The position numbers were made by a program, and so were the translations under genes. Positions 11,353-54,224 of a stretch of 64,000 bases of DNA are shown piece by piece (the first letter of the stretch is position 1; each line of letters begins with the position of its first letter). The stretch is from Phoronis australis. Taxonomy: Eukaryota > Animalia > Phoronida. The stretch is taken from positions 203,408-267,407 of the forward strand of contig NMRA01000578.1 in NCBI GenBank assembly GCA_002633005.1. Reading direction: 5' to 3'. Below the pieces are notes generated by a model. The model was not told the origin of the DNA. It worked only from the letters and a program-made list of their open reading frames with translations, and searched no databases.

Positions 11353-14300
11353 TTATATGTCACGTCGTCCTTTTCGGAGCCGATATCGTCGGCATCGATT
11401 AAACCTTTGTGGTGGGCAACTCTTGCAGATTTTAAGACTATATCTCAGCCATCCTGTAAGTATAAAGTAGAACAAACAAAGTTTATCAATATTTCACCTT
11501 GGTCATGTAGTAGGAACCCAATCTTTTGCTCAATATGCTGTATGGACATATACTCTACAGCATTCAGAGGGACTGATTTCGTTTTTCTCCCAATATATTT
11601 GCTCTACGGAACGCAGTAACGCGGCATCGTACACTCGTGAATTCATCGTTTATCGTGATTTCTCACACGAAAGTGTTTGGTGAATATGTAAAAAAGGATT
11701 TTAATAGAAAATCAAAAAATATTTGCTTTCATTTGAAAGGTGGTGAACTGTTTGAGCATGTTAAAATCAAATTTTAAAACACTTTTCTTTCTTATAAGTA
11801 AGAGTTATAAGTTTTCTTACGTTCCATGTATTTGTGTATAATAATTGTATATAGATTTCTTTGTATGCATTTAACCCAGACACAATGCCTCTTGGCGCTT
11901 TCTGGGTATGTATATTTATTGTACTGAATATTTCATAATAAACATTTAAAAAACATGACATTAGTTGGTGACATTGCGTGAACTGTAGATAATAAGTCTA
12001 AAAAGAACCCTGTCCCGACCGAGGTTCGAACCCGGACTTTCTGCTTGCAATGCAGAAAATCTCGGGTTCGAGCCCCGGTTGGGAGAGAGATTTTTTCTCA
12101 CTTAACTGTGATGTGACCAATATATGGCGTGAAAAAATAGATAAACATTTCGTATAGTTTATCAACACGCTAATTTTTTCTTCTTGGTACACTTTCCTCA
12201 CCTTATAGAGAATTGACAGCTGTTACACTAACGGCCGACCGACCAATCTTGTCGTTTCTTCATGCTGGCCATTTTTGGTTTATATTTTTAATATTTTGAT
12301 TGAGGTCGCATTTGTAATCTGATCCTTCTATATGCATGGTTAACCTGTGGCTGTTTATTTTTCCAAGAAAAGTTGTAAGCGACTTTCAGTCGTTAATACT
12401 TACTCTTATTTCCTTTCGATTTCATCGTTTGAACACGTGTCAGTATCTCGATACACAGAATGTTGAATAGGGAGTCGTGATATCAGTTATAAGTTATTGC
12501 GATCTGCCCGCGAATTTGATTCAATTAGATATCGATAACCATCAGATAGTGTTGCTACAACAAACAGTTATGTATCAGTTCAACGCATGGCTACAATTCA
12601 ATTAGACATCGATAATTATCACATAGTGTTATTACACGGTAGAGCATGCTGTTGGCGAAATAATAAATGATTAGTTGTTCCAGTTCAACGCAAGGATACA
12701 AACATCAAAATGATTGCAAGTATTTCTATATCTCAATAACGCAGTACCGATAACCATGACTACTGGCTGCAGAACACTTACCAGCAAAATGGAACGCTTG
12801 TCACTGGAGAGAGCCTTAGTCACTGTCCACAAAACAATTACCGGTTACTGTAGGAACTCGTGGGACGCGCAACGAACCCTATGGTGCATGGTAAATTCGT
12901 GTAGTTAAATTTCAGCTTTTACCGTGAGAGTTCCTTGCGCTTGGTAAGAGTTTTTTCGGTGACTGGTAAGTATTTTGTAAAGGGTGGTAAGAGCTTCCCT
13001 TCATGTCCGTGTCATATGCTGTGCGGCACAAAGTCATTAGAGGTTTGAATACCATCCCCGTGGCAAATCAAGGTTTTGACACATCAAGAAGAGAAATAAA
13101 TTCTCCGCCGTGAAATCACTACTCACCTGGAAAACGACGTCTAGTTGTCGGATGACACAGCCACACGACAAACTTAGTGCATTTGACGCAATACTTCGCC
13201 ATGTTTAGTTTGGTAGGGCCTGTTAATTAAGATAATTCGGCAACATTTGACTATGTTTTGACCCTTTGACAAAACAACAACTTATTACCACTCGTCCATT
13301 GTAGTTACCTGCCGAAAAGACTTCAAAAATTTTAACACAGCCAGTTTTATAGACTATAAAATAAATATCTTGAAGACCACTCGTTGTGTAACTTCAATAG
13401 ATGAGTCTTTATAAGTTGTTGAAGATTGACTCCAAACTCCATTCACAAAAGTACTATACTTTTTAGAGTCCCGTTTAAAAAAGGCACTTAACTGTTTTTT
13501 CTACGTAGAATTTATTTACATTACAGAGTTTAAAAATAAAAAATTGAATGTGTTTATACATTCATAGAAAACAAGTTTTACAACTGAAAAGTATATTCTG
13601 AAAAACACTAATCCTAGACCAGCTGATCTCTGAATACCAACGGAGTATATCTCCGCTGATTAAACGTAGTAACTCAGTCATGTACAATTGTTCGTTTTTA
13701 GATGAACAATTAAATTTAAAAATCTCAGGGCAACGTGGGAATGTACTTTATGTTGTTAACTTGCAATATTTGGAGAATAAAACAGCTTATTATTTAAAAT
13801 GACTTATTTTTATTAAAATGACAAAGGCAAAAATGAAGTTTGGGCCTCAAAAGAGAGGCGTCCAATATTAATATAGGTGGCCTCGTTTTTGAGGCTCGAA
13901 ATACAATTTTGCCTATGTCGTTTTAATAAGAATACGTCATGTTAAATAATAAGCTGTTTTAAATGTTTTTTATAAAAATGGTTGTTTTGCAAGAATTGTG
14001 ATATGGAAACAAAAACTTAGTCACATGGGGCACATGTTTGAAGATGACAAATAAATTGTGACCTCAGTTTTAACATGGCGAATATTAGAGAAAACTGCGC
14101 TGAACTGTGCCTAAACTAAAAAAGTAGCAAACTTAATGATTGTTAGACAACTTTCAATTGAGCTAATCAATAACGAAAGAGCGACACCTATAATTTTGTC
14201 AATGTTTTTACGTTTTCTTGACCATAAACCACCCCAAAACCGATTGTCAACTGCCAAACAATCCTGACACTCTTTGCCCTCGCTTTCAAATCCGTCTAGT

Positions 14301-15182
14301 GCTCCTAGCTTGTCCAGAAGTTCTGCAAAAAGAGAAAAGTCGTTATAGCTTTGGCGTCTCAGTTGAACGAAAAATTATAATTTTTCGCACTTTTTAGTGT
14401 CCTAGAAGACGGATACATTTTTCTGGTTTTTGACACAGTGAATCGACATTCCCAATTTTGGCAATTTCATCATGACAGGGGTGAAGTTATTTGGTTGCCT
14501 TTGCGGCCACGTCCTCTGCTACCAACTTATTTTAATTTGAAGTTGGCTTTCCTCTAACTCCAACTTGTTGTTGTATCTATATAAAAATTGCCAAAAGCCA
14601 ATTAATGAAAGATGTACTGCTCTCGGTATTTTACTTCACGTTCCAAAATACAATGAGACGATCAAACTTGTTCCTGAATTAACTTCAGGAAGTATGTTTT
14701 TTCAACAGTTTTACCTCGTCCAAGGAATATCAGTTTTTCCTTACTATAAGCATATGTTCTAGATGTGCTCGCTCTTTTTGATATCCAAAAATGATGCCTT
14801 CAAATATAGATTAAACACGTTAAATGCGGGTTAAAGAGCTAAAATGTCACCAAGAGTCCTAGCGTTACCATGGAATATTAGCGTGGGACTTCCTGGCTAA
14901 ATTCAGAATTTGCATAGTTGTTCTGACAGATACAAAATCAAAATAAAATAATATTCTCCACTAAATCACGCACGTCCAAATTAAAAGTTACACATTTAAC
15001 TGAAACGTGTGCCTATTGCGTTGTAAACAAAATGGCAGACAATACGAGCACGAGATCAGTTGCAAAATAACTGACTCTTACAGACAACACAATAACGACT
15101 TACCCTCTTCAGAATTTTCGTCTACAGTTCGGACATATCCATACATAGATAAACCAACAAGAATCACCAAAACTGCTTCCAT
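11353..15182 (-). CDS. Secreted cationic 6-Cys peptide precursor, copy A; join(15182..15104,13219..13127,11453..11353); 90 aa MEAVLVILVGLSMYGYVRTVDENSEEGPTKLNMAKYCVKCTKFVVWLCHPTTRRRFPGWLRYSLKICKSCPPQRFNRCRRYRLRKGRRDI
   Basis: Manual splicing gives a Kozak-like gcaccATGg start, donors G|gtaagt and CAG|gtgagt, and acceptors ttaacag| and cttacag|. Exon lengths 79+93+101=273 nt form one open frame ending in TAA. Hydrophobic N-terminus; same exon structure in copies B and D. No transcript evidence available. Confidence 0.85.
12008..12087. repeat. Hairpin made of two inverted tRNA-like 3' halves (B-box GGTTCGA.CC); paralogous copies at ~25378-25459 and ~49796-49880, right half only at ~38455
   Basis: CCCGACCGAGGTTCGAACCCGG...TGCA...TCGGGTTCGAGCCCCGGTTGGG. 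No D-arm or anticodon arm, so not a tRNA gene. Confidence 0.6.
13778..13961. mobile_element. Fully palindromic AT-rich foldback element; longer copy at ~52721-52955 in unit D, absent from B
   Basis: Ends TAAAACAGCTTATTATTT / AAATAATAAGCTGTTTTA, with pairing continuing to the centre. Confidence 0.75.
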
Positions 15183-15530: not shown

Positions 15531-15654
15531 TTAACAGCTTGGTTGACATGTCGCAACTTTACTTTAAATCAACGGTAATACATATACGTGTTTAGAAAAA
15601 GTCGGTGAATGCAACATGTATTCATAAACGAGTAAAATCAAGATGTCCACATAA

Positions 15655-17418: not shown

Positions 17419-17446
17419 CCTATTGTCTCTGTGACTAGTAATCTAC

Positions 17447-21135: not shown

Positions 21136-24100
21136 GTAATTGATGTTGATTTCTTATAATTTAAAACTAGATACTACCTTTTCCTCTCGTTTCAAAATTA
21201 AATCAAACACATATGCTGAACCAAAAATACATAGAACCCTGAAATGCGCAAGATGGAAAACATAGAACCCGGGACACATGGGGATGACCCGCAGAAATGA
21301 AACGATTTTCTCGTGTTGGCTGCGAATTCAGTTGAAAAAATTCTAGTTGACTGTTCAACGTTCGTGATTGGCATACTGAATGTGATTAAAATGTCAGTTT
21401 AGTTATACTATCAAAACGGAACCATGGAGTAGAAAGCAGAGCAGTGGGGGTAGGGGAAGCACCCCCCAAACCAAACTTGGAGGGCCTAATGAACATTTCG
21501 AACAAAAACATATAGACGCCACTGATGAGGAATTGGGGTGGGGGTGGTGTGTGTATCGACATGGTTATCCTACTAGGTTTTGATCATCAATTTCTTCCAG
21601 AACTACAATCATTGACACTGGTACGTGGGAATGGCACGGTGAACGGATGCGCTGAGAAACAAATTACTTTAATGTAAATGCAAGATATTACACACTTATT
21701 GTCTGAGGACAGTAAGTTGGCGTTAGACCCCAAAAACGTGATTATATCCGACACGGGGCCAACAAATTAGTCCCACTAATGCCGAGAGGATTCTAACTTT
21801 GAATAGGTAAGAAGAGACCGAAGAGAGATTAAAGCCATGATCTCTGTTGAGGTTTGGCTGATTAGCATCTTTTAAAATAGCACAACAGTGTCATTTTAGT
21901 AACAACAACAACATGAAGAATGTGCAACTTTCACCAACTTCGCAACCACTTGAAACATATAACGGAAAACGGTGGCTAAGTTTTGTTTTCACTTTTAGTA
22001 ACATTCTTCAAATCCTTTATGAAAATACGTTAAAAATATTAATCAGAGGGCGTAATTCAAGGTATAGCTCTGGAGAAACCTCTCTCAGACCCAGTATTCA
22101 CCACGACAGTAAGTTGCCATGGCAACAAAAATTAACTAATACATCATTTTGTACTTGAGAGTAACTTCTTATCGGCCACCATGATCTACAATTAGTCAAG
22201 TCCATTTCTCCTTCTCGCGACTACATAGAAAACTCATGATTTTGCGCAACACAGAAAAAATCTTTTCCATCTGACGACTCCCCACATAGGTATTTTTTAG
22301 CCTGAACGGTCTGTTCTAGAATTCTCTTGTTCGTATACTTTATGCAAAATGCTATTCATTGCCTATTAAACTATTCACCAAAAGTAAATGTACCATCTGT
22401 TTCTGCTCGTTTTCCAGGAAATTGAGAAACTGAATATGATTTATGTATGTTTGATGCACTTTAAGGCAGAATTCGACATGAATTATATGGGAAATGGTGC
22501 CTTCTTGCGTTTGAACCGATCGGACGACAATGGTTATTAAAGTTGGCGGTCTTTGTACCAAGTGCTTCAAACAGACTTTTAAGTGAATGTCGCTGTCTCT
22601 TTTGTTATACATGAAGAGAAAAATATAATGTGGCACTGATATAACCCACCTGCTTTTGTGTTTCTTTATGTCCAAGTGTTTGAGCAGTAGTAAATTTATT
22701 TCAAAAATTCATATACATTTCAACTGAATTACAACACCCAATATCAGATTTCGTCAATCGTATTTGTTTTTCCAGGTAATTATGTCAGCCTGAGTTGATA
22801 AAAATTGGGAGCTTATCTCTCAAAGTTGAAACTTTTCTTTATTTTCCAAATATGCTCTGACGTCACTTCCTTATTATATAGTACTACTATCCATGTTGGT
22901 TTCTTCGGGGTTTAATCCTCGTCCCTTTTATGTCGTGAAATACGGGTGCTATCTGAAATGTAACAGACACACTTTTATTTTCCTTTGAAAATAGGGCACA
23001 ACTGATCGAAAACTACTGAATTTCTTGAATTTCTTGAAACATACATATATATGTACATACATACATACATATATATACATACATACATACATACATTCAT
23101 TCATTCATATATTAAGCCTGTAAAGGCACAGCTTTCACATAAGCAACACAGACCTGTGTACCATGAAGTTAAATAATGAAGAGTAAAGCAACACAGAATA
23201 TCAACAAATCTATTCATAGGGAAATACAGTCATGTCCTGATCCATTTACTTGCATTTGATTCATGCTTTGATACACAACGACGATTATTAACCTAATCGC
23301 CTAGCCCTGAAATTTGAGAAAAAATTGAAATTATTTACAAAATTTGTTATTTGTAAAGTGGTATGCGTGACTAACGTATTGGACGAAATAATGGCACACT
23401 GTAGGGAATGACTGATAACATCGAATCACAGGGCATTTTTCTCGGATAATGAAGAAATAGTTTTGCTAAGTAACGATTTGTTTCTCAGGGAAGGCAATAC
23501 CCGTGCAATAACAGGTGTCAGGACAGGTTACGATGTGAGGTGAAATCTCTGAAGCAGACTTTAGTATCCTTTTAAAACTGGATTTCATCTTTATTTAGTA
23601 GCAACAAACGAAAAAACAATCAAGCCACTTAGGCTGACAAAACTGGTCTCATAGTAGTCCTTATTGTAATATGACTCAATTACCTTTTTTCCAACAAGAG
23701 CATCAGACCAACAGCGACTCAAGAAAACTACAGAGTTTATTGGGGTAGGCTAACCATCAAACTGCTAATTGGAAGAAAAGTTATTACGTCACATCCATAC
23801 CAATTCATCGAAATTGGAGACAAGGAATATGGCGGCCGGCGGCGTATTCCCATGCATGAAAAAATTTGTTCAAACGGGCAAAATTCAACAAAACCAACTT
23901 CAATCTGAAGCTCATGTCAAAGGATCTATGAACTGTTTACTTTCCAGTTGACGTAATGTAATATCCCATAGAGAAGTGGTAAGGGATACAACCAAGACGG
24001 TGTAATCTCATAGACAACCAGAGTAAGGTGACGTCACTCATTACGTCCCTTTTTGAAAATGACGCAGGTATGCACGCTTATTCTGGAATAATGCAAGATC

Positions 24101-24889
24101 GGATGAGCATGGAAATGTCTTAAGTCCAAAACGTTAAAGAAAATCATTGGCAGTTAAACAGCGGTGAAATGGACTTGTTAATACGAAATGTTACTGATCA
24201 AATAAATATCATAACATCTATTCAATTTACTGTGCACACGTATGCATGTAAATGAATAATGCTACCTTTAACGCCCTACCAGTTGAGAGATTGTTGAAAA
24301 AGAGCCAAACATCTACAACAAAACTACAACCCAATTGACTGACTCTCAGTGAAAGTAAAAAGCGTGCAGAATATTTTTGAACCTTGTATCAATCTGTGGA
24401 ATTTAATTTTGAGCTTTATACCAATCTGCCATTCTTTGTATCACGTGACAATGTGTTTTGGTAAAGTTAAGGAAAAATGAAGGAAGGTACGTATGTAGAA
24501 CAACAACATTGAAAATTTTCCTTTGCTTTATATGTTAGTAATGAATTTTCAAATCGCTGTCATAGTTTTCTACATTATTCTTGCGTTTCTTTTTTATGCA
24601 ACTTGAGATTTTTACGAGAACATCATTACACAAAAATGAAAAATTTTGAAAACAATTTTCAGTGGAGTTTTTGGAAAACAGTGCAGAAACCACTGCGCGC
24701 ACTTGAAAGATTCAAAATAATCAGATTAGCACTTTCTGTGATGAGATGTTATTAAATAAGCTACATTTTGATATTTTTAGAAAAGTGGTCTAACCGCAAT
24801 TCTGTATCAACCAACAATCGCGCACGTCGATGATAACTGTCAGCATGACTGCGTTTCTTTTTGTATTTCCAAAATAACTTACCAATAGC

Positions 24890-27800
24890 TTAAATGTCAC
24901 GTCGTCCTTTTCCAAGTCGATATCGCCAGCAAGGATAAAGTCTTTTCAGTGGGCACTTCTTGCAGATTTTAAGAATAAATCTCAGAAATCCTGTAAGTAT
25001 AATGTAGGACAAACAGAGATTATCAATATTTCACCTTGTTCATGTAGTAGGAACAAAATCTTTTGCTCAGTATGCTGTATGGACATAAATACTACAGCAT
25101 TACAGGGGCGTGATTTCGCTTTTCTCGCAAGAAATTTGCTCTGCGGAACACTTCGTACACTCGAAGTGATTTCGCAAACGAGAGTGGTTGGTGAAAATGT
25201 AAAAAGGAGTTTCATGAACACTGAAAAATTCTTTGCTTTCATGTGAATGGTAGTGAACTGTTTGAGCATAATAAAATCATCAACACTTTTCTATCAGATA
25301 AGTAAGAATCATTAGCCTTCTTACGTGCCATAGGTGGTTGACACTGCGTGACCTGTAGTTAATTAAGTCCAAAACGAACCCTGTCCTGGCCGAGGTTGGA
25401 ACCAGGACTCTCTGCTAGCAACGCAGTGAGTCCCGAGTCAGATCCCCGGTCGGGAGAGTGAGACTTAACTGTAGTGTGACCAACATATAGCATGTAAGAA
25501 GACTAATAAATATTTGGTACAGTTTAACAACGCGCTGATCTTATTTCTTCTTGGTCCACTTTCCGCACCTTTTAGAGAATTGACAGCTGTTACACTAACG
25601 GCCCACCGACCAATCTTGTCGTTTATTCATTCTGGCCATTTTTGGTTTTTATTTTTAATATTTTTGGTTGAGGTTGCTTTTGTAATCTGATCCTTCTATT
25701 TCTTTGGTTAACCTGTGGTTGTTTATTTTTCCAAGAAAAGTTGTAAGCGACTTTCAGTCGTTAATACTTACTCTTAGTATTTCCTTTCTATTTCATCGTT
25801 TGAACACGTGTCAGTATCTCGGTACACAGAATGCTGAATAGCGAGTAGTGATACCAGTTACAAGTTATTGCGATCTGTATTAAATTCGTTTATATATCGA
25901 AAAATGTGTTTCGAGCGATAATCTAAACTTAACCCACAACCTTTGAAACATCAAAATCATTGCAAGTATTTCTATATCTCACTAACATAGAAGTGATAAC
26001 CATGGCTACTGGTCGCAGAACACTTACCAGGAAAATGGAACGCTTACCACAGTAGGGAGCCCTAGCCATCGTCCCCTAAACACTTACCTGGTTCTGTAAG
26101 ATCTCATAGGACGCACAGCGAACCCTGGTGTATGGTAAATGTGTATTCGTGTAGTTGAAGTGCGGCTTCTATGGTAAGGGTTCTTTGCGCTTGGTAAGAG
26201 TTCTTTCGTTGGCTGGTAAGTTTTTTGTAAAGAGTGGTAAGAGTTTCCCTTCATGTTCGTGTTATATGCTGTGCGGCACGAGGTCATTAAGGGTTTGACT
26301 ACCCTTCCTGTGGCAAATCAAGGTTGTGACACATCAAGAAGAGAAATAAATTCTCCGCCGTGGAATCACTACTCACCTGGAATACGACGTCTAGTTGTCG
26401 GATGACACAGTAGCACTATAGGTTTAGTGCATTTGGCGCAATACTTCTTCCGTTTGGCAGGGTCTGCAAATTAAAATAATTCGACAATATTTGATCACGT
26501 TTTGACCCTTTTGACAATATAACCACTAATTAACACTCGTTCATTGTAGTTACCCGTCAAATGATCTTCAAAAACTTTAACAGTTGTATAGACTATAATA
26601 AAAAGCACCTTGAAGATCAGACGGTGTGTATCTCCAGTAGATGAGTCTTATACGTTGGTGAAGATTGACTACATACTACATTTATTAAAATACTATGTTT
26701 TTAGAATCCCGTATAAAAAAGAAAACAAGGCACTCTATTGGTTTTCCACGTAGAATAAGTTTACAGTACAGAGGTTAAAAATTGCTTAAATTTGAATGGT
26801 TTTTAGATATTAATAGAAAACAGTTTTACAACAGAAATGTACATTCTGAAAAACACTTATACTACACCAGCTGATCTCTGAATACCAAAGGGACTATTTC
26901 TTCGCTGATTAAACGTAGTATCTCAGTCATATGAATTGTTCATTTTAGATAAATAATTAAAGCAACAAATTTCAGGGCAACTTGTGCATGGCGTGTTTAT
27001 GAATACATGTACTCCATGTTGTTAACTTTCAATATTTGAAGAATCATAAATGGTTGTTTGGTAAGAATTGTGACATAGGGACAAAAATGTTAGTCACATG
27101 GGGCACATGTTTGAAGATGACATATAAATTGTGACCTCAGTTTTAACATGGCGAATATTAGAGAAAACTGCGCTGAACTGTGTCTTTTACACAGGCTTAC
27201 ATCACACGAAACTAAAAAAGTATCAAAATTTGATAACTGATGGACAAATTTTAATTGAGCTAATTAATTACAGAAGAGTAACGTCCTTCATTTTGTCATT
27301 CTTTTTACCCATGTTTCTCCATAAGCCACCCCAAAACCGTTTGTCAACTGACGAACAGTCCTGACACTCTTTTTCCTCTCTTTCAAATCCGTCTAGTGTC
27401 TCTAGCTTGTCCAGAAGTTCTGCAAAGAAAACACTAGTTATAGCTTTGGTGTCTCGGACGAAAAACTCTAAACTTATGCGCTTTTTAGTGTCTGAAAAGA
27501 CGGATATATTGGTTTATGGTACGGTGAGTCGACATTCCCAATTTTTGTCGATTTTATCAGGAAAGGTTTTCCTCTAACTCCACATTGCCAAAACTAATAA
27601 ATGAAAGATGTACTGATCTAGATATTTTACTTCCCTTTCCAAAATAAAATGTGGCGATCGAACTTGCTCCTGAATTGACTTCAGGAAGTATATGTTTTTT
27701 CAACAGTGTTAGCTCGTCGAAGGAACTGCTGTCTTTCCTCACCTCAAGCATAAGATAAAGAGCTCCATTGTCACAAAAATACCTAGTGTGGCCATAAAAT

Positions 27801-28160
27801 ATTAGCGTGGGACCTCCTGGCTAACTTCAAAGTTTGCATGTTTCTTCTGACAGATACAAAATCAAAATAAACTAATATTCTTCATTAAATTACACACATC
27901 CAATTTAGTAGTTACACCTTGAACTGTGACGTTTTCCTATTGCGTTGATTTGTAAACAAAATGTCAGACAATCCGAACACGAGGTCAGTTGCAAAATAAC
28001 AATGCTAACGTTACCCTTAAATGTTGTTTACAAACTGAATAGCTAAATTTGACTCTTACAGACAAGAGAATAACGACTTACCCTCCTCAGAATTTTCGTC
28101 AACAGTTCGGACATATCCATAGACAGATAAGCCAACAAGAATCACCAATACTGCTTTCAT
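24890..28160 (-). CDS. Secreted cationic 6-Cys peptide precursor, copy B; join(28160..28082,26463..26377,24990..24890); 88 aa MKAVLVILVGLSVYGYVRTVDENSEEDPAKRKKYCAKCTKPIVLLCHPTTRRRIPGFLRFILKICKKCPLKRLYPCWRYRLGKGRRDI
   Basis: Canonical splice sites at the same positions as in copy A. Exon 2 is 87 nt (in-frame 6-nt deletion). All six Cys and the GRR are retained. Confidence 0.85.
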
Positions 28161-37465: not shown

Positions 37466-37685
37466 AATCAAGGAGTCTAGTGCAACAGGAGTGTTCCTTT
37501 GTGTGTTATCGCTACTACTAGCGCCACCAAGTAGCGAATAAGCAACGGTCAAGCACGAAGCACGAGAATAAAGACGAAGGGCGTCTTTTGCAGGGCAATA
37601 AATTGCACAAATTTATCCACGAAAACACCAGAACTGTCATTTTTTTCTTTTCCTAAGTATCCAGAAAAATACACACTCCTTGATT
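37466..37685. mobile_element. MITE private to unit C, TIR AATCAAGGAGT/ACTCCTTGATT
   Basis: 11-bp perfect TIR; empty site in A, B and D. Confidence 0.65.
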
Positions 37686-38155
37686 TAATGTTCATCTTTA
37701 TGCCAATCTGCCATTCTTTGTATCAGGTGGTCATGTGTTTTGGTAAAATTAAGGAAAAATGATGGAAGTTACGTACAAAAAAAACAACAATAATAATAAC
37801 ACTGAAAATTTCCGTTGCTTTAGGCGTTCGAAATGAACCCTCAAATCGCTGTCATGGTTTTCTGCATTATCCTTTCGAGATGAATATGTTCATACAAAAA
37901 TGAAACATTTTGAAAGCAATTTCCTATAAACTTTTTGGAAAACAGTTTATAAACCTATGACATATTCAGGATAATCAGACAGCTAATTTTTATGATAGAG
38001 GCTCCGACAAAAACCATATTTTCATATTGTTAGGATTATGGTATCACCGCAATTCTGTATCGATCAACAATCGTGCAAGTTGACAATAACTGGCAGCATG
38101 ACTGCATTTATGTTCTGCATTTGTCTTTCTATTTTCAAAATAGATTACCATTAGC

Positions 38156-39832
38156 TTACATTTTACGTCGTCCTTTTCCACGTCGATACGCCCGACAACG
38201 ATAAAGTCTTTGTAGTGGGCACTTCTTACAGATTTTAAGAATCAGTCATCCTGTAAGTACAACGTAGAACAAACAAAGATTATCAATATTTCACATTGGT
38301 CATGCTGCAGGAACACGATCTTTTGCTCAATATGCTGTATGGACAAATAAGGTACAACATTACAGTGGCGTAATTTAACTTTTCTGGCAAGACATTTCAT
38401 CCACGGAACGTAGCGACGTGGCATCGTATATTCGTGAATTCATCGTTCAGCGTGAGTCCCGGTCGGAAGAGAGATCATTTCAGACTAAGTGTGACGTGAC
38501 CAACCTATGGCGTGGAAGACCATAGGCGGATTTAGGGGGGGGGGCTTGGCTGCCGCATGAAAAACGAAACAGATACAGCGTGAAGCGTGAGGAAATAGGG
38601 AATCGTGTTCCCGTTTTTTTATTAGTCCACCGATAGATTTTCTGAACAGAAGGTCTACATACCTGGTTCCCGAAACTTTCGGGCCGCCTGTGCACTTACA
38701 ATCGCGCTTGCCCAATTCCCCCGCCACTGAAGACGACTGATCAATCTTCCGTATACTTTATCAACACACTGTATTTTTCTTCTTGGAACACTTTTTGCAC
38801 CTTTTGGATAATTGACACCTGTTACATTAACGGCCGACCGACTAATCTTGTCGTTTATTCCTCCTTACGTTTTTTTTTCTTATCTTTAATTATTTTTTCG
38901 CTTATGTCGCATTTGTTTGGTTAGCCTCTGGCTGTTTTTTTTTTGTTTAGAAAAGCTGTAAACGATTTTCCACCGATAATACTAACTCTTATTTTCGTTC
39001 GATTTCATGGTTTGAACACTCTGAGTAGGTATCCAGAAAGTTGAATAGGGAGTAGTGATATCAAGTTCATGTTATTGTGATCTGCTCGTGTGTTAAATTC
39101 AATTAGATATCGATAACTATCACATACTGTTATTACACGGAACAGCAAGCTGTTGGCGAAATAATAGACAATTAGTTGTTTCAGTTCAACGCATGGATAC
39201 AAACTTTAAGGCTTAAGAAAGATTGGTTTTGTGTTAATTACCTCAGTCTACTTCCTATCAAAGAGAGTTTTGCACAAGTTTCTCTAACCTTTTTAAAGGT
39301 GTTTCGAGTGGTAATCTAAACTTCACCCGCAACCACTGTAATATCAAAATGATTGTAAGTATTACGCGTATCTCACATTGAAGTGATAACCATGACTACT
39401 GGTCTCAGAGCTCTTACCAGCAAAATGGAATGCTTACCACGGTAGGGAGCTCTAGCCTCTGTCCACAAAATACTGACCGGGTCTTGTAGGAACTCGTGGG
39501 ACGCGCAAAGAACCCTATGGTACATGGTAAATTCGTGTAGTTGAAGTTCAGCTCCTATAGTAAGGGTTCTCTCGGTGACTGGTAAGAAGTTTGTGAAGGG
39601 TGGTAAGAGCTTCCCTTCCGGTCCGTGTTATATGCTGTGCGACACGAAGTTATTAAGGGCTTGCCTACCATCCCTGTGGCAAATCAAGGTTTCATATCAA
39701 AAAGGGAAATAAATTCTCCGTTGTGGAACCACTGCTCACCTGGAATACGACGTCTAGTTGTCGGATGACACAACCACACGACTTACTTAGTCCAATTGAC
39801 GCAATACTTCGCCATGTTCAATTTGGCAGGGT
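38156..39832 (-). pseudogene. Pseudogenised copy C of the 6-Cys peptide gene; exon 2 at 39832..39740 (DPAKLNMAKYCVNWTK*VVWLC...), exon 3 at 38250..38156 (G*LILKICKKCPLQRLYRCRAYRRGKGRRKM*); signal exon absent
   Basis: In-frame stops in both remaining exons and Cys2 changed to Trp. The segment holding the ATG exon in A, B and D is replaced by the Academ fragment at ~41381-42363. Confidence 0.85.
38521..38729. mobile_element. CATAGGCGG...CCGCCACTG MITE with 5-bp TSD AAGAC, private to unit C
   Basis: Exact TSD at 38516-20 and 38730-34; empty site in A, B and D. Confidence 0.75.
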
Positions 39833-40218
39833 CTGTAAATTAAAATAACTCGGCAACATTTGACCATGTTTTGACCCTTTTGTCAAAACAACCACTTAGT
39901 AGCACTCGTTCATTGCAGTCACCCGCCAAATGAACTTCAAAACATTAATTTAGCCAGTTTTATAGACTACAAAACAAACACCTCGAACACCACTCGGTTT
40001 GTAAGTCCAATTACCAAGTAGTTGAAGATTGACTACAAACAACATTTAGAAAAATTCTATACTTCAAAGAATAGAAAAAGGCACCTGGTTGTTTTTTCTA
40101 CGTAGAATACGTTTACATTACAAAGGTTAAGAATTGTGATGTAGAGACAAAAAACATGTTTGAAAATGACAAATAAATTGTGATCTCAATTTTAGAGAAA
40201 GCTGGGGGTGAATTGTGC

Positions 40219-40463
40219 TTACGCTGAGCTTTTTGGTTTTGTGTATGTTTTTGTATATTATTATTTTGTTAAAATGTCCTCTTTTATTTCCGTACCACTA
40301 TCTTCTTGTTTTTGTTTTCTTTACCTTTGGTGTTTTTTCTCAATATTATGTATCACTTACGTAACCAATTGTTCTATAGTTAACAGGTTAGATATAATGG
40401 TTCGCTTTCTGGGCTAAATATTTGTATTTTAATGAATTGTAATTTATTTGTGTGGCAATAAAA
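40219..40463 (+). mobile_element. Probable 5'-truncated non-LTR retroelement 3' tail, private to unit C
   Basis: T-rich insertion ending in AATAAAA and flanked by a TGTGC duplication. Confidence 0.5.
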
Positions 40464-41380
40464 TGTGCCTTTTACAAAGGCTTACGTTAAACCACAATAA
40501 AAAAGCATCAACATTTCATAACTGTTGGACAAATTTTAATTGAACTAATTAATTACAAAAAGCAACACTTATCACTTTGTCGATGTTTTTATCGGTTTTT
40601 CTTCATAAACCACCCCCCAGAAAGGCCGTTTGTCAACTGCTGAACAATCCTGACACTCTTCGCCCTCGCTTTCAAATCCGTCTGGTGTTTCTAGCTTGTC
40701 CAGAAGTTCTGCAAATACAGAAACGTCGTTATACCATTGGTGTCTCAGTTGGACGAAAAACTCTAATCTTTCGCGCTTTTTAGTGTCTGAGAAGACGGAT
40801 ATATTGGTTTATGGTACGGTGAGTCGACATTCCCAATTTTTGTCGATTTCATCAGGAAAGGAGTTACGTTCTTTGGTCACCTTCGCGGCCACGTTCTCTG
40901 ATACAAACTTATTTTAATTTGAGGTTGGCTTTCCTCTTTCTCCAACTTGTTGTATCTGAGTAAAACACTGCCAAAATCAATTGATGAAAGACGTACTGCT
41001 CTCGGTATTTTATTTCTATTCCCTTTCCAAAATAAAATGAGAAGATCGAAGTTGTTCGTGAAGTGACTTCAAGAAGTTTTATGTTTTTCAACAGTTTTAG
41101 CTCGTCCAATGAACTTCTGTCTTTTCTCACCATCAGCAGAACATAAATTAGATGTTCTCGCTCTTTTTGATCCCCAAAAATTATGGCTTCACATATAGAT
41201 TAAACACGTTAAATGCGGGTTAAAGAGCTAAAATATCACCAAAAGTCCTAGCGTTGCCATAGAAGCGTGGGACTTGCAGGCTAACTTCAGAATTTGCATA
41301 TTTTTTCTGACGGATACAAAATCAAAATAAAAAATATTCTCCATTAAACTACACAGCCCAAAGTAGTAGTTACACCTTGA

Positions 41381-42363
41381 AATTTTCGTCCACTGAAGGG
41401 TGGGCCTTTGGAAGTTGTACCATGGCTCTCAAGAAAAAAGTCATCCAGCGTAATTCGTATGTCCAAATGCAAAAAAAAACATAGACACAATTCTTCACAT
41501 GGGCTTTTAAAGTCAATGGCCAATTGCCCAATCTCTGACCTCGAATGAAGCGACAGTTAATTAGCAGGTAGTCTCTTATTACAATTTTCCAGTAACAAAC
41601 TGTTGGAGCATTGCAGACTCATTTTTCCCACATATCAAAGCTTTCGTGAGGTCCAGACTTTTCATGACAGTACTCATCATCATATGCCTGTTTCTTTAAT
41701 TCATTAAGCCAGAGTGTGTTGGTATGCACATCTGGTACGTTGACATGCTTTCCACCCAGAGGAGATGGTGCAAAACCAGGAGTGAAGACATTGTCTAGGG
41801 ATAACATGTGGTCCCATCCAACAGTTTACCTCCACTCTCTTGAGATGCCATTTCGATGTGGAGCATGCCCATGAAGCATAGGTCTACCATTTTTGATTCA
41901 CCGAACTCATCAGGGAAGCCATTGCATTTTTTCTTCATAGCATTATATGCAGCCTGATTCAAACCAACAAAAATAATATAACCAATAGATGCAAGAGTGG
42001 AGCTGCGCGAGAACAAGCGTTTGACATTTTCTATCCGGACACAAGGCGCGTGACCAAGCGTTTGGTATTTTCAGTTCATAGAAAGTGTAAAAAGATTTTA
42101 ATGGCCTCAAAGCATAAAAGTAACATCAAAAATATTGGAAACATGGATTTACAACATGATCTGGTGATGATAATAGCCGAGATATGCCAATTTCCATTTT
42201 CGGCGGCGGCCACGTTGGATTTTGTGCGTAGCGGCCACTAGGGGGTTAGCACAATTTGTTTGCGGTGCTTTTTAGAAATGTTCCACCTATTCCTAACATT
42301 GTACCAATTTGCAGAAACTTGTCACAAAGTGCGCGATTTTCATGAATTCCTTCTCCGCTACTA
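41381..42363 (-). mobile_element. Academ transposase core fragment with one terminus, private to unit C
   Basis: Minus-strand fragments FPDEFGESKM...MGMLHIEMA...G.LLDG, YWKIV...FIRGQRLGNWPLTL...FFAFGHTNYA resemble the Academ DDE core. The right end terminates in ...CGCTACTA. Confidence 0.8.
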
Positions 42364-46004: not shown

Positions 46005-47439
46005 TTAAATTATTCCACTTGAACACCTGGCGGTTTCCGCAATTAAAAAATGGAGATGTAATCAGTTAAAGGATAGTTATGGTTTAAAACTATAACTCAC
46101 TATATATTTTAGAGTATTTAATGTCGTGTGTTAAGAATATTCAACACTAACAAAAGATACAATCTACATTTGAAATAAATTACAACAACAATGCTATGAA
46201 TTATTTTGCGTTGTAACAGAGAGAGTGACAAGAGTCATGGGTGGAAACTATGCCATGGCTGGGAAAATCTTCGATCCTCTAAACCCTACACCTGGACAAT
46301 CATACACCAAACCAAAAGTGTCAATCACAGACACGTATTCCATAACAATTACTTCAAACATGGCACCGAAAATTCTCCGATACCCGTTGACCAAACAGGG
46401 GAAGTAGATTCCTCATTCCCGCAGCAACAAAATTAAAGGTTTTTCAACCCAAGACTACGACTCGCATGCGACTACTAGGCACCAATACACAATGCACTCA
46501 GAATGCAAAACACTCCAGATTCCAAACATTGGAAAGAAAAAGGGTGTCAATCAGATCTTTCTTTACTAAACTGAAACGTCTGAGGCGCACCTGAATTTCC
46601 ATCCAAATCTGGTCTTGCCGTCAAGAAGTGGTAGATTGGATATTGTATTCAGTTTTCAAGCTGCGATTTGTTGAAAGGTTAGGATTTTGCGCAACGCAGA
46701 AAAAAATCCTTTCCTGACTCCCCACTAGGAATTTTTCAGCCTGAACGGTTTGTTCTAGAATTCTCTTGCTCGTGTACTTAATACAAAATACTATTCATTG
46801 CCTATTAAACTATTCACCAAAAGTAAATGTACCATATGTTTTTCGCACGGGTTTTTCAGGAAATTGATAAACTGAATATGATTCAGATATGTTTGATGCA
46901 CTATAAGGTAGAATTCGACATGAATTATAAGGATATGGCGCCTTCTAGCATTTTAACTAATCGGACGACAATGGTTATTTAAGTTGGCGGTTCTTGTACC
47001 AAGTGATTCACACAAACTTCCAAGTGAATGTTGCTGTCTCTTTTTGTGGTACTTGTATTACCCACTCGCTTTTGTGTTGCTTTATGTTCAAGTGCTTGTA
47101 GTAAATTTATTTCAAAGATTCATATACATTTCAACTGAATTACAATACTCAATATCAGATTTCGTCAATCGTATTTGTTTCTTACAGGTAATTATGCCAG
47201 TCTCAGTTGTATTAAATTGGGAGCTCATCTCTCAAACTTTTCTTTATTATTCAAATAAGCTCTGACATCACTTCCTATTACTGTTATTATGCATGCAGGT
47301 TTCTTTGGTGTTTAATCCTCGTCCCTTTTCTGTCGTGAAATACTGAAAGGTGCCATCTGAAATGTAACAGACATCTGCCTTTGAGAATAGGGAACAATTG
47401 ATCGAAAACTGCACAATTTCTTGAATCTGACTGTATTTG

Positions 47440-47555: not shown

Positions 47556-49286
47556 CATATATTAGGCCTGCAAAGGTACAGCTGTCATATACGCAACACA
47601 AACCTGTGCACCATGAAATTAAACAAAGAAGAATAAAACAACATGGAGTATCAACAAATCTATTCTTAGGGAAATTGAGTCATGTCCTGGTCCATTTACA
47701 TATATTTGATTCATGATTTGATACACAATGACGATTATCAACTTGACCACCAAGCCTTGAAATTTGAGAAAAGTTGGAAAATTATTTACAAAATCGGTTA
47801 TTTGTAAAGTGGTGTATGTGACTAACGCATTGGATAAGGTAATGGCCCACTGTGGGGAATGACTGCTAACATTGAATCACAAGGCATCTTTGTCGGCTAA
47901 TGGAGAAATAGTTTAGCTGACTAATGATTTGTTTCTCAGGGAAGGCAATACTCGTGCAATAGCAGGCCTAGGAGTCAAGACAAGTTAAGATGTGGGCTGA
48001 AATCTGTGATGCAGACTTAAGTATCCTTTTCAAACTGAATTTCATCTGTATTTAGCAGCCAAACACGAAAAAATAATTAAGCCACTTAGTCTGACAAATC
48101 TGGTCTCATAATAGTCCTTAACGTAATATGACTCAATTACCTTTACCAACAAGAGCATCAGACCAACAGGGACTCAAGAAAATTATATACTTTATTGGGG
48201 TTGGCCAACCTTAAAACTGTTGATTTGAACGGAAAGTCATTACGTAGCGTCGAAATTGGACTACAGAATATGGCGGCCGACGGCACCAATATATTAGTTC
48301 AAACGGGCAAAATTCAACAAAACTAACCTCTTTAAAAAAATTGAAGCTCATGTCACAGGATTTATGAACTGTTGACTTTACAGTTAAATGATTTGACCTA
48401 ATATAATATCCAATAGAGAAGTGGTACGGATTACAGCCAAAATGGTGAAATCTCCTTGACGACCAGAGTAAGATGACGTCACTCATTCCGTCCCTATTCG
48501 AAAATGACGCATGCATGCATTGTCTGACTTGCGTTGCTGGCATATTCTGCAATAATGCGAGATCGGATGAGCGTGGTATTGTGTTGAGCCCAAAGTGGAA
48601 AGAAAAACCTTAGCAGTTAAACAACGGCGAGATGCCCTTTAACGTACATTCACTATACTGCGCACACGTATGCATATAAATGAATAATGCAGCCCTTCTA
48701 CTTCGGAGATTGTTGAAAAGGAGCCAAATATCAACAAAACTGCAACCCTCTTCATCGACTCTCAGTAAAAGCACATACCTTCTGGAAGCAAAAAGCGTGT
48801 AAAATTTAATTTTGAAACTTGTAGCAATATCTATGGAATTTAATTTTGAGCTTTATACCAATCTGCCATTCTTTGTTTCAAGTGACCCTGTGTTTTGGTA
48901 AAATGAAGGAAGGCACGTACGTAGAAAAACAACAACATTGAAAGATCTCTGTTGCCTCAAATGTTCGAAATGAACTCTCAAATCGCTGTCATAGTTTCCT
49001 ATGTTATTCTTGCGTTTTTGTTTTCTGCAACTTGAGATTTTTTACAAGAATATCTTGATACAAAAGAACATTTGAAAGTAATTTCCTAAAGATTTTGTGA
49101 AAACAGTGCATAAACCAATGACAGTACTCGGATTGAAAGATTCAAAATCATCAGATTAGCACTTTCTGTGATGAGATGCTCCGAAATAAGCGACATTTTG
49201 ACATTTTGATATTTGAAAGGCCTTTCATACTAACGTTGACGCGTCCATGTATTGGGGAGTTGCGGTTATGTATAACTTACCATTAT

Positions 49287-52200
49287 TTATATGTCACGTC
49301 GTCCTTTTCGAAGTCGATATCGCCGACAACGATAAAGCCTTTGTAGTGGGCACTTCTTGCAGATTTTATGAATATTAAATCTCAGCAGTCCTGTAAGTAT
49401 AATGTAGAACAAACAAAACTCATCAATATTTTACCTTGGTCACGTAGTAGGGACGCATTCTTTTGCTCAATATGTTGTATCGTTATGTACATATACCTTA
49501 CAACATTAGAGGGGCGTGGTTTCGTTTTTCTCACAAGACATTTGCTCTACGGAACGCAGCAACGCGAAATCGTACTCTCGTGAATTCATCGTTTATTGTG
49601 ATTTCTCAAACGAGAGTGTTTGGTGAAAATGTGAAAAAGGAGATTCATCGATAGTCAAAAATTCTTTGCGTTCGTTTGAATTGTGGTGAACTGTTTGATC
49701 ATGTTGAAATCATTACACTCTTCTTTCTTATCAGTAATAATCGTTAATCTTCTTACATGCCATATGTTGGTGACATTGCATGACCCATAGTTATTCCTGT
49801 CGCGACCGAGGTTCGAACCCGCCGGGACTTTCTTCTAGCCGTGCAGAAAGTCCCGGTTCGAGTCCCGGTCAGGAGAAAGGTCTTTTCACACTTAACTGAG
49901 ATGTGACCAACATATGACGTGTAAGAAGACCGAGATATCTTTCGTATACCTTATCCACACTTTGTTTTTTCTTCTTGGTACATTTTCGCACCTTTTTGAG
50001 AATTGACACCTGTTACATTAAAGGCCGACCGACCTATCTTGTCGTTTATTCATACTGGCCTTTTTGGTTCATCTTTTATCATTTTTTCGCATTTGTCGCA
50101 TGTGCAATCTGATCTTTGTTTGGTTAGTCTCTGGCCGTTTTGCTAGAAAAGTTGTAAACGACTTTCTGCCATTTCAACACGTGTGATTAGGTATTCAGAA
50201 TGTTGAATGAAGAGTACTGAGATCAGTTACAAGTTATTGTGATCACATAGTGCTATTACACGGAACAGCATGCTGTTGGTGTAATAATTAACAATTAGTT
50301 GTTCCAGTTCAACGCATGGATACAAATTTTAAGGCCTAAAAAGATCGGTGTTGTGTTTAGTATAATTACCTCAGTCTACTTTCTACAGAAGCGAGTTTCA
50401 CATAAATTTCTGCAACAATTTTAAAAGTGTTTCGAGCGATCCACAACCAGTGTAACATCAAAATGAAACTCGTGAAAAGCGGTGAGACTGTCTAGCTGTG
50501 CTGTCTCAAGGTCAATTCAGTGCTCACGCACGGGTAAGCCTTGCTGACTATTATTTATAAACATTTTTTAAATTCTAATATTACAACTTCAAAGACTATT
50601 TATTAAATTCTAATTTGAATATTTACTACGAAAGCTCAATACAATTTACAATTGTTAAGCTTAAAATAAATCTATTGACAAAAAGTAACTGAATCATTTT
50701 ACATTGCGCAAGCGTGTTTTTACAAAAGTTGCGTCATGTCGTTGAAGGTTTTAGACCCGTCAAGTTTTTCGGCATAAAAGATCGTTTTTACGGTTCATGT
50801 TTGAAAACAAATCCTACACATGTTTCAGATTCATGACATTGGCAAGTCTTGCGATTTTGACGAATTTTCCAAATGGTTTTTCCCGTATCATAAACCTGAT
50901 ACTCGTGTGGGATTCTCTATATTTCACTAACACAGGAGTGATAACCATGTCTCTGGGCCGTAGAACACTTACAAGCAAAGGTGGCACTGAACAGCTAGGC
51001 TGCGGCAGCAGCCAATTTGCACTCCCAAAACACTAAAAGGGTAGGCTAGGCTTGGGGGTATTTTTAGGTAGGCAATACATGTAGGCTCAATGAATGTGGT
51101 TTTTTGTATTTGGTGCAGTTGGGTACCAGCCATTCGCTAACACAAACGTCGTTGAAAACACGACTAAACTTTTTGTTTGAAAGCTTTCAAACAAAAAGTT
51201 TAGTCGTGTTTTCAAGGAAGTTTGTTTGTATTTGTAAAAAATTTTGAGAATAAAACTAAAAAAGACCACTTGCTCGGCTGTAGCTGCACTCTTCTTCAAG
51301 ATGGCGTCCCCTGTTGCGATTGTGCCTTGCTGGGTAGCGACTGAGAAATTGACTGCGATTTCAGGTAGCCCTCAAACAAGCCAGATTTGCAAAAAAGTAG
51401 TTGGTTGACAGTACTTTTGGACCACATTTTTGGAATCGGTAGGACATTTTCTTTCAGAATAGAATGTTAGCTTTAGTCGTGCATCGGCATGAAAATGGTG
51501 ATTTTGGGATGAAAAGAGACGATTTTGTGGGGTTTTCTGCCCCTTTACCTTGCTTTTCAGTAGGAGTGAAAGGGTCAAAAATACAAGAGAGTCAAAGTTT
51601 CTGTGCTCATCCGTAGGGGTTGTGATGTGAAACGACTCAAAACTTTTCATTCTTTGCCTACAGTTTTTGACAGAATGAAAAATGACTGACGAGTCCAATG
51701 ACGTGTGTTCTGATAGGCAAACCCTACAGAGAACTGTTCTTTTCCTCGAAATGGAATGTAGGTAACCCTAGCCACTGTCCACAAAACACTTGCTGGGTCG
51801 AGTGGGAACTCATAGGACGCACAGCGAACTCTGTGGTGCATGGTAATTTCGTGTAGTTGAAGTTCAGCTTCTGTGGTAAGGGTTCTTTGCGGTTGGTGAG
51901 AGTTCTTTCTGTGGCTGGTAATTATTTTGTAAAGGGTAGCAAGAGCTTTACTTACTGTCCGTGTTATATGGTGTGCGACACAAGGTTATTAAGGGTTTAA
52001 CTAACAACACCGTGGCAAATCAAAGTTTTGACACACGAAGAAGAGAAATATATTCTCCGACGCGGAATCACTACTCACCTGGAATACGACGTACAGTTGC
52101 CGGATGACACAGTATCACTATATGTTTAGTGCATTTGACGCAATACTTCGCCATGTTCTGTTTGGCATGGTCTGTAGATTAAAATAATTTGGCAACATTT

Positions 52201-54224
52201 GACCATGTTATGACCCTTTTGACAAAACAACCACATGTTAGCACTCGTTCATTGTAGTTACCCGCCAAATGAACATCAAACTTTTAATGTAACCAGTTTT
52301 ATGGACTCTAAAATAAACATCTTGAAGACCTCTCGGTGTGTAAGTCCAATAGGTGAGTCTTAATAGGTTGTTGAAGATTGACTACCAACTAAATTTAGAA
52401 ATATCATCTACGTTTTAGGATCACGTTTAAAAAACACGATATCCGGTTGTTTTTTCTACGTAGAATACTTTTACAGAGCTTAAATCACTTAATTTGAATA
52501 TGTTTTTATAGATCAATAAAAAACAACTGAAAAGTATATTCTGAAAAGCAGTAATCCTAGACCAGCTGATCTCTGAATACTAAGGGAGTATATCTTAACT
52601 TATTAAACGTAGTAACTCAGTCATGTAGAATTATTCATTTTTAGAAGAACAATTAAATTAATAAATCTCAGGGCAACGTGGGAATGTACTTTATGTTGTT
52701 AACTTGCAATATTTGGAGAATAAAACAGCTTATTATTTAAAATGACTTATTTTTATTAAAATGACATAGGCAAAAATGATATATGGGCCTCAAAAGCGAG
52801 GCGTCCAATATTAATATAGGGGGCTGGCCTAAAGGCCGTCGGAAGCGGGGCCTTTCCAAATTAATATAGGTGGCCTCGTTTTTGAGGCCCGAAATACAAT
52901 TTTTGCCTATGTCGTTTTAATAAGAATACGTCTTGTTTAATAATAAACTGTTTTAAATGTTTTTTTAAATTGTTTGTTTTGCAAGAATTGTGATGTGGAA
53001 ACAAAAGCTTAGTCACATGGTGCACATGTTTGAAGATGGCAAATAAATTGTGACCTCAGTTTTAACATGGCGAATATTAGAAAAAAACTGCGTTGAACTG
53101 CGCCTTTTACACAGGCTTACAGCAAATGAAACGAAAACAGTACCAACAATTAATAATTGTTGGACAACTTTCAAATGCGCTAATCAATTACAAAAAGGGA
53201 CACTTATCATTTTGTCGATGTTTTTACCTGTTTTTCTCCATAAACCACCCCAAAACCGTTTATCAACTGATGAACAATCCTGACACTCTTTGCCCTCGCT
53301 TTCAAATCCTTCTAGTGTTTCTAGCTTGTCCAGAAGTTCTGCAAAGACAGAAAAGTCGTTATAGCTTTGGTGTCTCTGTTGGATGAAAAAATTTAACTTG
53401 TCGCCCTTTTTAGTGCCTGAGAAGACGGATATATTGGTTTTTGATACCGTGAGTCGACATTCCCAATTTTTGTCGATTTCATCAGGAAAGGAGTAAAGTT
53501 CTTTGTCCGCCTTTGCGGCCACTTTCTCTGCTACAAACGTATTTTAATTTGAAGTTGGCTTTCCTCTAACTCCAACTTGTTGTTGTATCTATATAAAACA
53601 AATTAATGAAAGGCGTACTGCTCTCGGTATTTTACGTTCCTTTCCAAAATGAAATGTGAAGATCAAACTTGTTCGCGAATTGACTTCAGGAAGTATATGT
53701 TTCTTCAACAGTTTTAGCTCGTCGAAGGAACTTCCGTCTTTCCTCATCCCAAGCATAAGATGTTTTAGATGTGCTAGGTCTTTCTGAGACTCGAAAATGG
53801 TGACCTTCAAATATAGGTTGAACACGGCATAAAGACCTAAAATGTCGCCAAAACGATAAAATATTGGGGGGCGGGACTTCCTGGCTAACTTCAGAATTGG
53901 CATATTTCTCCTGACACTTACAAAATCCAAATAAAATGATATTCACCAATAAATTACACACGTCCAAATAAATAATTACAGCTTGATCTGTGACGTTTGC
54001 CTATTGCGTTGACTTGTAAACAAAATGGCAGACAATCCGAATACGAGGTCTCCTATAATATAACAATGCTTACATTACCCTTAAATATTGTTTACGGAGC
54101 TAAATAGCTAAACTTGACTCTTACAGACAAAAGAAAATGACTTACCCTCTTCAGAATTTCCATCTACAATTTGGACATATCCATAGATAGATAAACCCAT
54201 AAGAATCACCAAAACTCCTTTCAT
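49287..54224 (-). CDS. Secreted cationic 6-Cys peptide precursor, copy D; join(54224..54146,52171..52079,49390..49287); 91 aa MKGVLVILMGLSIYGYVQIVDGNSEEDHAKQNMAKYCVKCTKHIVILCHPATVRRIPGLLRFNIHKICKKCPLQRLYRCRRYRLRKGRRDI
   Basis: Canonical splice sites. Exon 3 carries an in-frame 3-nt insertion. Six Cys and GRR are retained. Confidence 0.85.
50468..51747. mobile_element. Two unclassified insertions private to unit D intron 2 (~50468-50910 and ~50981-51747)
   Basis: Absent at the orthologous sites in A-C; termini not resolved. Confidence 0.5.

Follow-up and report, generated by a model that had tools for sequence, protein, structure and literature searches.

Echinoderm antimicrobial peptides (AMPs) described so far are few: a 2025 review counts a single AMP for sea stars and two main families for sea urchins (PMC11767717), and sea cucumbers have three short AMPs according to a 2026 review (PMC13673367). 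In the sea-urchin peptides a 20-amino-acid (aa) signal and a prosequence of 30 aa precede a mature part that starts with Trp, and Gly-Arg serves as the amidation signal (PMC4805251, PMC8659048); in both families, centrocins and strongylocins, the pre-pro region is better conserved than the mature part (PMC4805251). Here we describe a tandem array of small Cys-rich peptide genes in a 64,000-nucleotide (nt) stretch of Phoronis australis DNA (GCA_002633005.1, contig NMRA01000578.1, positions 203,408 to 267,407; hereafter the window). With moderate confidence, we read its three intact genes, as predicted from sequence, as a new family of secreted, cationic, disulfide-bonded and amidated host-defence peptides, likely to kill microbes via their anionic membranes. 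If anything, their nearest functional likeness appears to be with the centrocins and strongylocins, and they would be members of neither family.

Self-comparison of the window gave four tandem units on a single (minus) strand, 75–80% identical in local alignments, which bore out an earlier note made from the letters of the window (hereafter the sequence-only reading):

~8.7–20.3 kb, minus strand: unit A
22.1–35.6 kb, minus strand: unit B
35.6–46.7 kb, minus strand: unit C
46.7–56.6 kb, minus strand: unit D
35830..42360, minus strand: copy C pseudogene, with lesions in every coding exon

Pairwise divergence among the units was 17–20% in the 3′ region, by which allelic or assembly duplication was ruled out, and the tree was close to a star. 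The reading frames are intact in copies A, B and D. Copy C is a pseudogene: exon 1 is absent, with about 1 kb of unrelated DNA at ~41381–42360 (terminal repeats of this DNA were looked for and not found), exon 2 (acceptor 40708) has a frameshift, exon 3 (39832–39740) has lost one Cys and gained an in-frame stop, and exon 4 has an in-frame stop near its start (38250). Copy C is therefore a natural control, having diverged as much as A, B and D yet lost the structure. No additional paralogue was found in the 64-kb window, an Rfam search gave no matches, and the GC content of the window was 34–45%.

The sequence-only reading had assigned to each gene three small minus-strand exons with GT/AG phase-1 splice sites (in A, 15182–15104, 13219–13127 and 11453–11353). 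These were all found, with equivalents in B and D, and the joined frames of A, B and D gave 90, 88 and 91 aa without internal stops. The exon count and the 88–91-aa precursor drawn from them are probably wrong, as an exon 2 (starting at 14322 in A) and a 3′ untranslated region (UTR) exon were missed. The model predicted here has five exons, namely four phase-1 coding exons and the 3′ UTR exon:

15104..15182, minus strand: copy A coding exon 1, with the ATG, a hydrophobic signal-like stretch and the start of the acidic propeptide; donor AGG|GTAAGT ranking 2 of 194
14212..14322, minus strand: copy A coding exon 2 (new), with the acidic propeptide, C-Q-D-C, N-R and F-W-G-G-L-W; end at 14212 or 14233
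13127..13219, minus strand: copy A coding exon 3, with a cationic module K-x-C-x2-C-x7-C, then R-R-R
11346..11453, minus strand: copy A coding exon 4, with a cationic module K-x-C-x2-C-x7-C, G-R-R-D-I and the stop at 11355–11353; donor 7 nt further on
9165..9434, minus strand: copy A predicted 3′ UTR exon, acceptor 9434, AATAAA at ~9186; lower end approximate
28082..28160, minus strand: copy B coding exon 1, equivalent of A exon 1
27309..27419, minus strand: copy B coding exon 2 (new); end at 27309 or 27330
26377..26463, minus strand: copy B coding exon 3, 6 nt less than A
24883..24990, minus strand: copy B coding exon 4, stop at 24892–24890
22680..22952, minus strand: copy B predicted 3′ UTR exon; lower end approximate
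54146..54224, minus strand: copy D coding exon 1, equivalent of A exon 1
53228..53338, minus strand: copy D coding exon 2 (new); donor CAG|GTAAAA at 53228, the best in-frame open donor of D
52079..52171, minus strand: copy D coding exon 3, equivalent of A exon 3
49281..49390, minus strand: copy D coding exon 4, 3 nt more than A, stop at 49289–49287
47090..47356, minus strand: copy D predicted 3′ UTR exon; lower end approximate

The new exon 2 is opened by the best conserved acceptor of the gene (A 14322, B 27419, C 40708, D 53338), and the 25 nt surrounding this site do not differ between any of the four copies. Read in phase 1, exon 2 is open in A, B and D, and its product consists of a D/E-rich stretch, K-E-C-Q-D-C, D-K-R (D-N-R in A) and F-W-G-G-L-W. 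Across the three copies 77 of its first 90 nt are identical, and 2.9% of intron windows do at least as well. The end of exon 2 is uncertain because two in-frame donors are common to A, B and D, one at 90 nt (score ~0) and the other at 111 nt (3.3 in D, −0.5 in B and −2.2 in A); both alternative ends in copy A (14212 and 14233) keep the frame. This exon fills a gap in the three-exon model, since that model had no cleavage site between the acidic and the basic parts. Exon 2 is also symmetrical, and therefore its skipping would yield the three-exon form. As for the other exons, an in-frame TAG precedes the ATG of exon 1 in A, B and D, exon 3 of copy A has the top donor of the 194 and is the top of 187 open conserved candidate exons, and in exons 3 and 4 of copy A the phase-1 frame is the only open one. 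A donor 6–7 nt past the stop, a conserved acceptor (9434 in A) and an AATAAA ~250 nt further on make up the 3′ UTR exon, whose three-way identity (209/251) was matched by 0.8% of intron windows and whose AATAAA is kept in all four copies.

The four-exon precursors of A, B and D have 127, 125 and 128 aa, respectively, with 8 Cys each (118–121 aa with the shorter exon 2 donor), and no coding exon exceeds 37 codons. The N-terminus is hydrophobic (hydropathy up to 3.1–3.8 over residues 3–9) and is followed at residues 20–54 by a propeptide of ~35 aa with 12–14 D/E and 3–5 K/R. The acidic propiece of the sequence-only reading is present, its ‘DENSEE’ being the start of a longer propeptide. K-R in B and D, or N-R in A, stands directly before F-W-G-G-L-W. 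From F-W-G-G to the last G-R-R there are 66–69 residues with 19–20 K/R, 0–1 D/E and six Cys, arranged as two C-x2-C-x7-C modules (Cys 74, 77, 85, 104, 107 and 115 in copy A); the claimed spacing C-x2-C-x7-C-x18/19-C-x2-C-x7-C was as found, as were the 17 K/R and no D/E in the 58–59 residues before G-R-R of copy A. An R-R is conserved between the two modules, and each of the three C-x-x-C motifs of the precursor lies two residues past a Lys. Amphipathic stretches are present (helical moment of 0.57–0.83 in exon 4), and AlphaFold models of single exons were unreliable (predicted local distance difference test scores of 56 and 53), that of exon 4 being a helix-loop-helix. By hydropathy and charge counts, the signal-like stretch, the anionic propeptide and the cationic Cys-rich part of prepro host-defence peptides are all present, and the tandem architecture proposed earlier, including the Gly-dibasic end, holds; its fit is even better with exon 2, from which the K-R site and most of a long acidic propeptide come.

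Several features indicate that the genes are more than a chance path through duplicated DNA. Of the 194 GT sites conserved across the three intact copies, the best three are the predicted donors of the three-exon model (13126, 15103 and 11345 in A), and among 163 conserved acceptor sites those of exon 2, exon 4, the UTR exon and exon 3 ranked 1, 2, 3 and 9, respectively. In lineages simulated at intron-like neutral rates, the three-exon structure was kept in 1.6–8.3%, falling to 0.3–2.7% when the six Cys and the Gly-dibasic end were also required; the four-exon structure outlasted neutral drift in 0.3–2.9% of lineages, yet it is kept in three copies. Over the four coding exons 302/378 columns are identical in the three copies compared with 3257/4372 in introns (Fisher p = 0.011), and variable sites at codon positions 1, 2 and 3 number 20, 24 and 32, each of 126. 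None of copies A, B and D departs from the 8 Cys, F-W-G-G-L-W or G-R-R-D-I. Pairwise identity was 80–91% for exons and 79–86% for introns, and the pre-pro exons were conserved to 82% and 86% versus 79% and 77% for the mature exons. Nucleotide conservation alone says little here, and the splice sites are more telling. The coding indels put forward earlier as evidence (−6 nt in B and +3 nt in D) are present and are multiples of 3, but they are weak when taken alone, being two in number while 37/150 intron gap runs are also multiples of 3. At the level of sequence, the tandem peptide gene family is real and its coding conservation modest.

Homologues were sought with single exons of 26–46 residues as queries, which is sensitive to close and weak for distant relatives, in protein and metagenome collections that are thin in unannotated animal genes; exon 1 was queried against Pfam and NCBIfam, and exon 2 against 1.84 billion representatives. 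In Pfam (12 + 3 proteins) and NCBIfam (4), only sub-threshold L33 and hydrogenase matches were obtained. In the PDB there were no matches for exons 4 and 3, and exon 2 gave 5 at E values of 0.7–1.0. A word-indexed protein search left 0/1385, 0/133 and 0/26 candidates at E ≤ 10, and 0/459 and 0/346 pattern matches were confirmed in metagenome contigs. Two exon 2 matches among the 1.84 billion representatives were rejected, being tandem-repeat open reading frames (ORFs) with only C-Q-D-C in common. Cholecystokinin (CCK)/sulfakinin was also rejected, since F-W-G is its C-terminal end, while in the tandem peptides F-W-G comes after K-R. The strings KRFWGG, FWGGLW and KGRRDI were not found in the part of the literature searched, nor did the literature searches, as far as they reached into each source, find a family with this Cys framework, which is not described in the parts consulted of PMC10608444, PMC11767717, PMC12466427, PMC13673367, PMC5116183, PMC4065081 and PMC6409789. 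With these single-exon queries no relative was found in Pfam, NCBIfam, the PDB or large protein and metagenome collections, and, as regards sequences other than those of strongylocins, PpCrAMP, AmAMP1 and periculin, the family is apparently undescribed.

The Cys framework differs from those of big defensins, CS-alpha-beta defensins, ShK-type peptides, saposins and turgencins, as the sequence-only reading had stated. CS-alpha-beta defensins combine a C-x3-C helix motif with a C-x-C strand motif, neither of which occurs among the 8 Cys, and no Pfam defensin was matched exon by exon. ShK-type peptides (aurelin, damicornin and AmAMP1) have a ShKT domain with six Cys ending in C-x3-C-x2-C; this spacing is absent, and no Pfam or PDB match was obtained with single exons, a weak test with half a domain per query. 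Saposin-like proteins (NK-lysin, SapB) have an ~80-aa helical domain with a terminal C-x5-C, which is absent in the tandem peptides, and no Pfam match was found. The spacing of strongylocins probably includes adjacent cysteines, which the tandem peptides lack. Big defensins follow C-X6-C-X3-C-X13(14)-C-X4-CC (PMC10608444), a pattern that the tandem peptides do not show, and the CS-alpha-beta motif is named in PMC5116183. The macins neuromacin and theromacin have eight-Cys patterns ending in or holding C-X-C (PMC12295236); theromacin holds one C-X2-C-X7-C, but its other intervals differ, and the tandem peptides have no C-X-C. Turgencins are likewise cationic and amidated, with six non-adjacent Cys, one C-x-x-C and partly helical structure, but they have 35–36 aa and are far less cationic, and their spacing is x3-x4-x7/8-x2-x3 versus x2-x7-x18/19-x2-x7 here (PMC7024374); their full pattern C-x3-C-x4-C-x7/8-C-x2-C-x3-C with CXMAC and KKXGG is not found in the tandem peptides. 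Hydra periculin-1, compared here by its description, also has an anionic N-terminal part, a cationic C-terminal part and 8 Cys (PMC12466427); the tandem peptides place two of the 8 Cys in the anionic part.

Centrocins resemble the tandem peptides in their ~120-aa precursor (20-aa signal and 30-aa prosequence versus ~19 and 35), cationic mature part, early Trp, terminal Gly-Arg amidation signal and better conserved pre-pro region, but they have one Cys per chain and two chains with a 24-aa interchain spacer (PMC4805251), whereas the tandem peptides have their six Cys spread over two modules that no acidic spacer separates, and a C-x-x-C in the propeptide. Strongylocins are echinoderm prepro AMPs, also cationic with six Cys, and strongylocin 2 has an N-terminal Trp, but their precursors have 89–90 aa with a 16-aa prosequence and a 51–52-aa mature peptide (PMC4805251, PMC8659048). 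By eye, a strongylocin sequence from Edman degradation, itself partial (PMC4805251), showed no likeness to the tandem peptides. What is new here is apparently the Cys framework, the functional class of secreted cationic host-defence peptides being known already.

In the proposed mechanism, the four coding exons would be spliced as modelled, the signal would be cleaved near residue 19, and the propeptide, with a charge near −9, would mask the cationic part, near +20, during storage. Prohormone processing involves a convertase, carboxypeptidase E and peptidylglycine amidating monooxygenase; a prohormone convertase would cut at K-R and G-R-R, and the released peptide would be amidated at its C-terminus. 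Three disulfides would form and, with an odd number of Cys (three) in either module, at least one of them would have to link the modules or else chains or molecules; cleavage at the conserved inter-module R-R could yield a two-chain product. The amphipathic stretches would then attack anionic microbial membranes. The duplications, the fast change of the mature part and the loss of copy C would together amount to birth-and-death evolution of an immune effector family.

A number of points weigh against this host-defence reading. The signal peptide was judged from hydropathy only, copy A has no dibasic site before F-W-G-G-L-W, and the exon 2 donor is weak and ambiguous (scores from −2.2 to 3.3). 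Donors were scored with a metazoan donor matrix whose splice-site frequencies are textbook values, and the simulations concern features picked after the sequence had been seen; for exon 2 alone, neutral survival intact in all three copies had p values of 0.008–0.05. Purifying selection is weak, because the pairwise ratios of nonsynonymous to synonymous substitution rates (dN/dS) for the three-exon model were 0.52, 0.98 and 0.72, and the corresponding ratios of proportions (pN/pS) for the new exon 2 were 0.86, 1.37 and 0.26. Of the intron windows, 24% were at least as well conserved as exon 3 and 39% at least as well as exon 4. An antimicrobial or toxin role would be read from composition only, the database searches found no homologue supporting any function, and the echinoderm np11/np15 precursors, taken as neuropeptides, share the layout of signal, acidic part, K-R and six Cys.

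This last point bears on the idea, which we consider unlikely, that the same processing releases a secreted signalling peptide, the ligand of a receptor (a neuropeptide, hormone or pheromone, possibly with a role in reproduction). K-R and G-R-R are also neuropeptide hallmarks. However, high net charge, recent tandem copies and a dN/dS near 1 are unusual for receptor ligands, and the tandem peptides have a net charge of ~+16 to +20, four recent copies and a mature dN/dS near 1. The np11, np15 and np11-like precursors (Ajnp11, Ajnp15, Ajnp11LP and Arnp15a) consist of a signal, an acidic spacer, K-R and a six-Cys peptide within 90–120 aa (PMC6586643, PMC4772807), but they lack such a cationic excess, and three A. 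japonicus sequences have no G-R-R end (PMC6586643). Their Cys pattern, C-x3-C-x2-C-x10/12-C-x3-C-x8/15-C from the same three sequences, is also unlike that of the tandem peptides, in which it does not occur. It is quite unlikely that the product is a defensive cytolytic toxin belonging to the skin, the mucus or a defensive organ and directed against predators or foulers instead of microbes: the amphipathic cationic stretches would suit it, and a prepro, Cys-rich, amidated layout with tandem duplication, as seen here, is typical of animal toxins, but no solved toxin or Pfam toxin family was matched in the exon-by-exon searches and no feature of the window suggests a venom organ.

Alternatively, the genes could encode a structural, adhesive or metal-binding secreted peptide, in which the three C-x-x-C motifs, all with a Lys two residues ahead, would hold zinc or form cross-links in a matrix, mucus or an egg coat. 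Ribosomal protein L33, in its zinc-knuckle region, gave the top family matches of exon 3 (E 0.013, sub-threshold), and the odd Cys count per module permits intermolecular links. We regard such a function as very unlikely, as the L33 matches reached 16 bits against curated cut-offs of 25–40 bits, Cys in secreted proteins is usually oxidised, and the convertase and amidation sites fit a released active peptide. Least probable in our estimate is that the copies are non-functional, either as decaying duplicates or as a chance exon path through duplicated non-coding DNA. Exon conservation barely above that of introns, dN/dS of up to 0.98, the failure to find a homologue and transposon-like insertions close upstream of B and D would agree with this, but the splice-site ranks, the simulated survival of 0.3–2.9% per lineage, the contrast with copy C, the conserved UTR exon with its AATAAA and the coherent order of signal, propeptide, K-R, mature part and G-R-R argue for functional genes.

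A bolder version of the host-defence reading, which is tentative and rather improbable, is that the precursor was built by triplication of one phase-1 exon with K-x-C-x-x-C-x7-C. Two copies would be cationic killing modules, and the third, turned acidic with Trp for the last Cys, would be a built-in Cys-bearing antidote and folding partner; the R-R cut would give a two-chain peptide with up to three disulfides. Triplication is suggested because all three Cys exons agree in phase (1-1), size (87–111 nt) and K-x-C-x-x-C, exon 2 having Trp at the third-Cys position of the others. Shuffle tests of exon similarity gave p = 0.007 for exons 3 and 4, 0.05 for 2 and 3, and 0.12 for 2 and 4, and in register the exons had 21–34 identical nt of 78–90, near background, with an hhalign probability of 1.9%, so that these tests are suggestive only. 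If true, this would be a new fold and a new way to build a host-defence peptide. The host-defence reading as such, if true, would add a gene-encoded tandem family with a new Cys framework and a charge of ~+20, a new immune effector class and a candidate salt-tolerant antibiotic scaffold. The Cys pair retained in the propeptide is an unusual feature, and the family shows how genes with coding exons of at most 37 codons slip past ORF-based annotation.

Several other features lie close to the genes. All four copies retain a CCCAGTT-x-x-AG motif, a candidate transcription start, at ~85 nt on the 5′ side of the ATG (minus strand, 15267–15277, 28241–28251, 42361–42371 and 54307–54317), and CCAAT precedes it in A, B and C. 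A (CATA)n microsatellite whose length differs per unit adjoins the 3′ UTR exon acceptor upstream (9516–9545, 23039–23109, 36155–36200 and 47460–47559). About 320 nt upstream of the copy B ATG lies an insertion of ~4 kb (28480–32489) with perfect 18-nt terminal inverted repeats and, inside it, a perfect 30-nt hairpin (30082–30143); it is a probable non-autonomous DNA transposon and may affect the copy B promoter. Degenerate ORFs at 44656–45668 and 18321–19277, duplicated with the units, contain an acidic Ser-rich stretch and a Cys cluster. They had no significant Pfam match, and presumably they resemble the P2X7-like tails of some animal DNA transposons.

Elsewhere in the window, the palindrome TAGGCCTA occurs 6 times (6564, 7787, 8462, 30411, 60905 and 63680) against 0.40 expected, a 15-fold excess that 0/100 shuffles reached. 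The palindrome may be frequent in echinoderm genomes, although a literature search yielded no confirmation of this. A 1.14-kb direct duplicate (60041–61178 and 62814–63955, 94.7% identity) may be an assembly join of two haplotypes, because an N at 62813 stands at the start of the second copy. The plus strand has, at 58876–59475, a pair of open frames (199 and 164 aa) that overlap, are higher in GC and had no Pfam match. Inverted repeats at 6378–6764 and 7907–8266 (75–84% identity), with short tandem arrays inside, are probably the ends of a foldback or miniature inverted-repeat transposable element (MITE)-type element.

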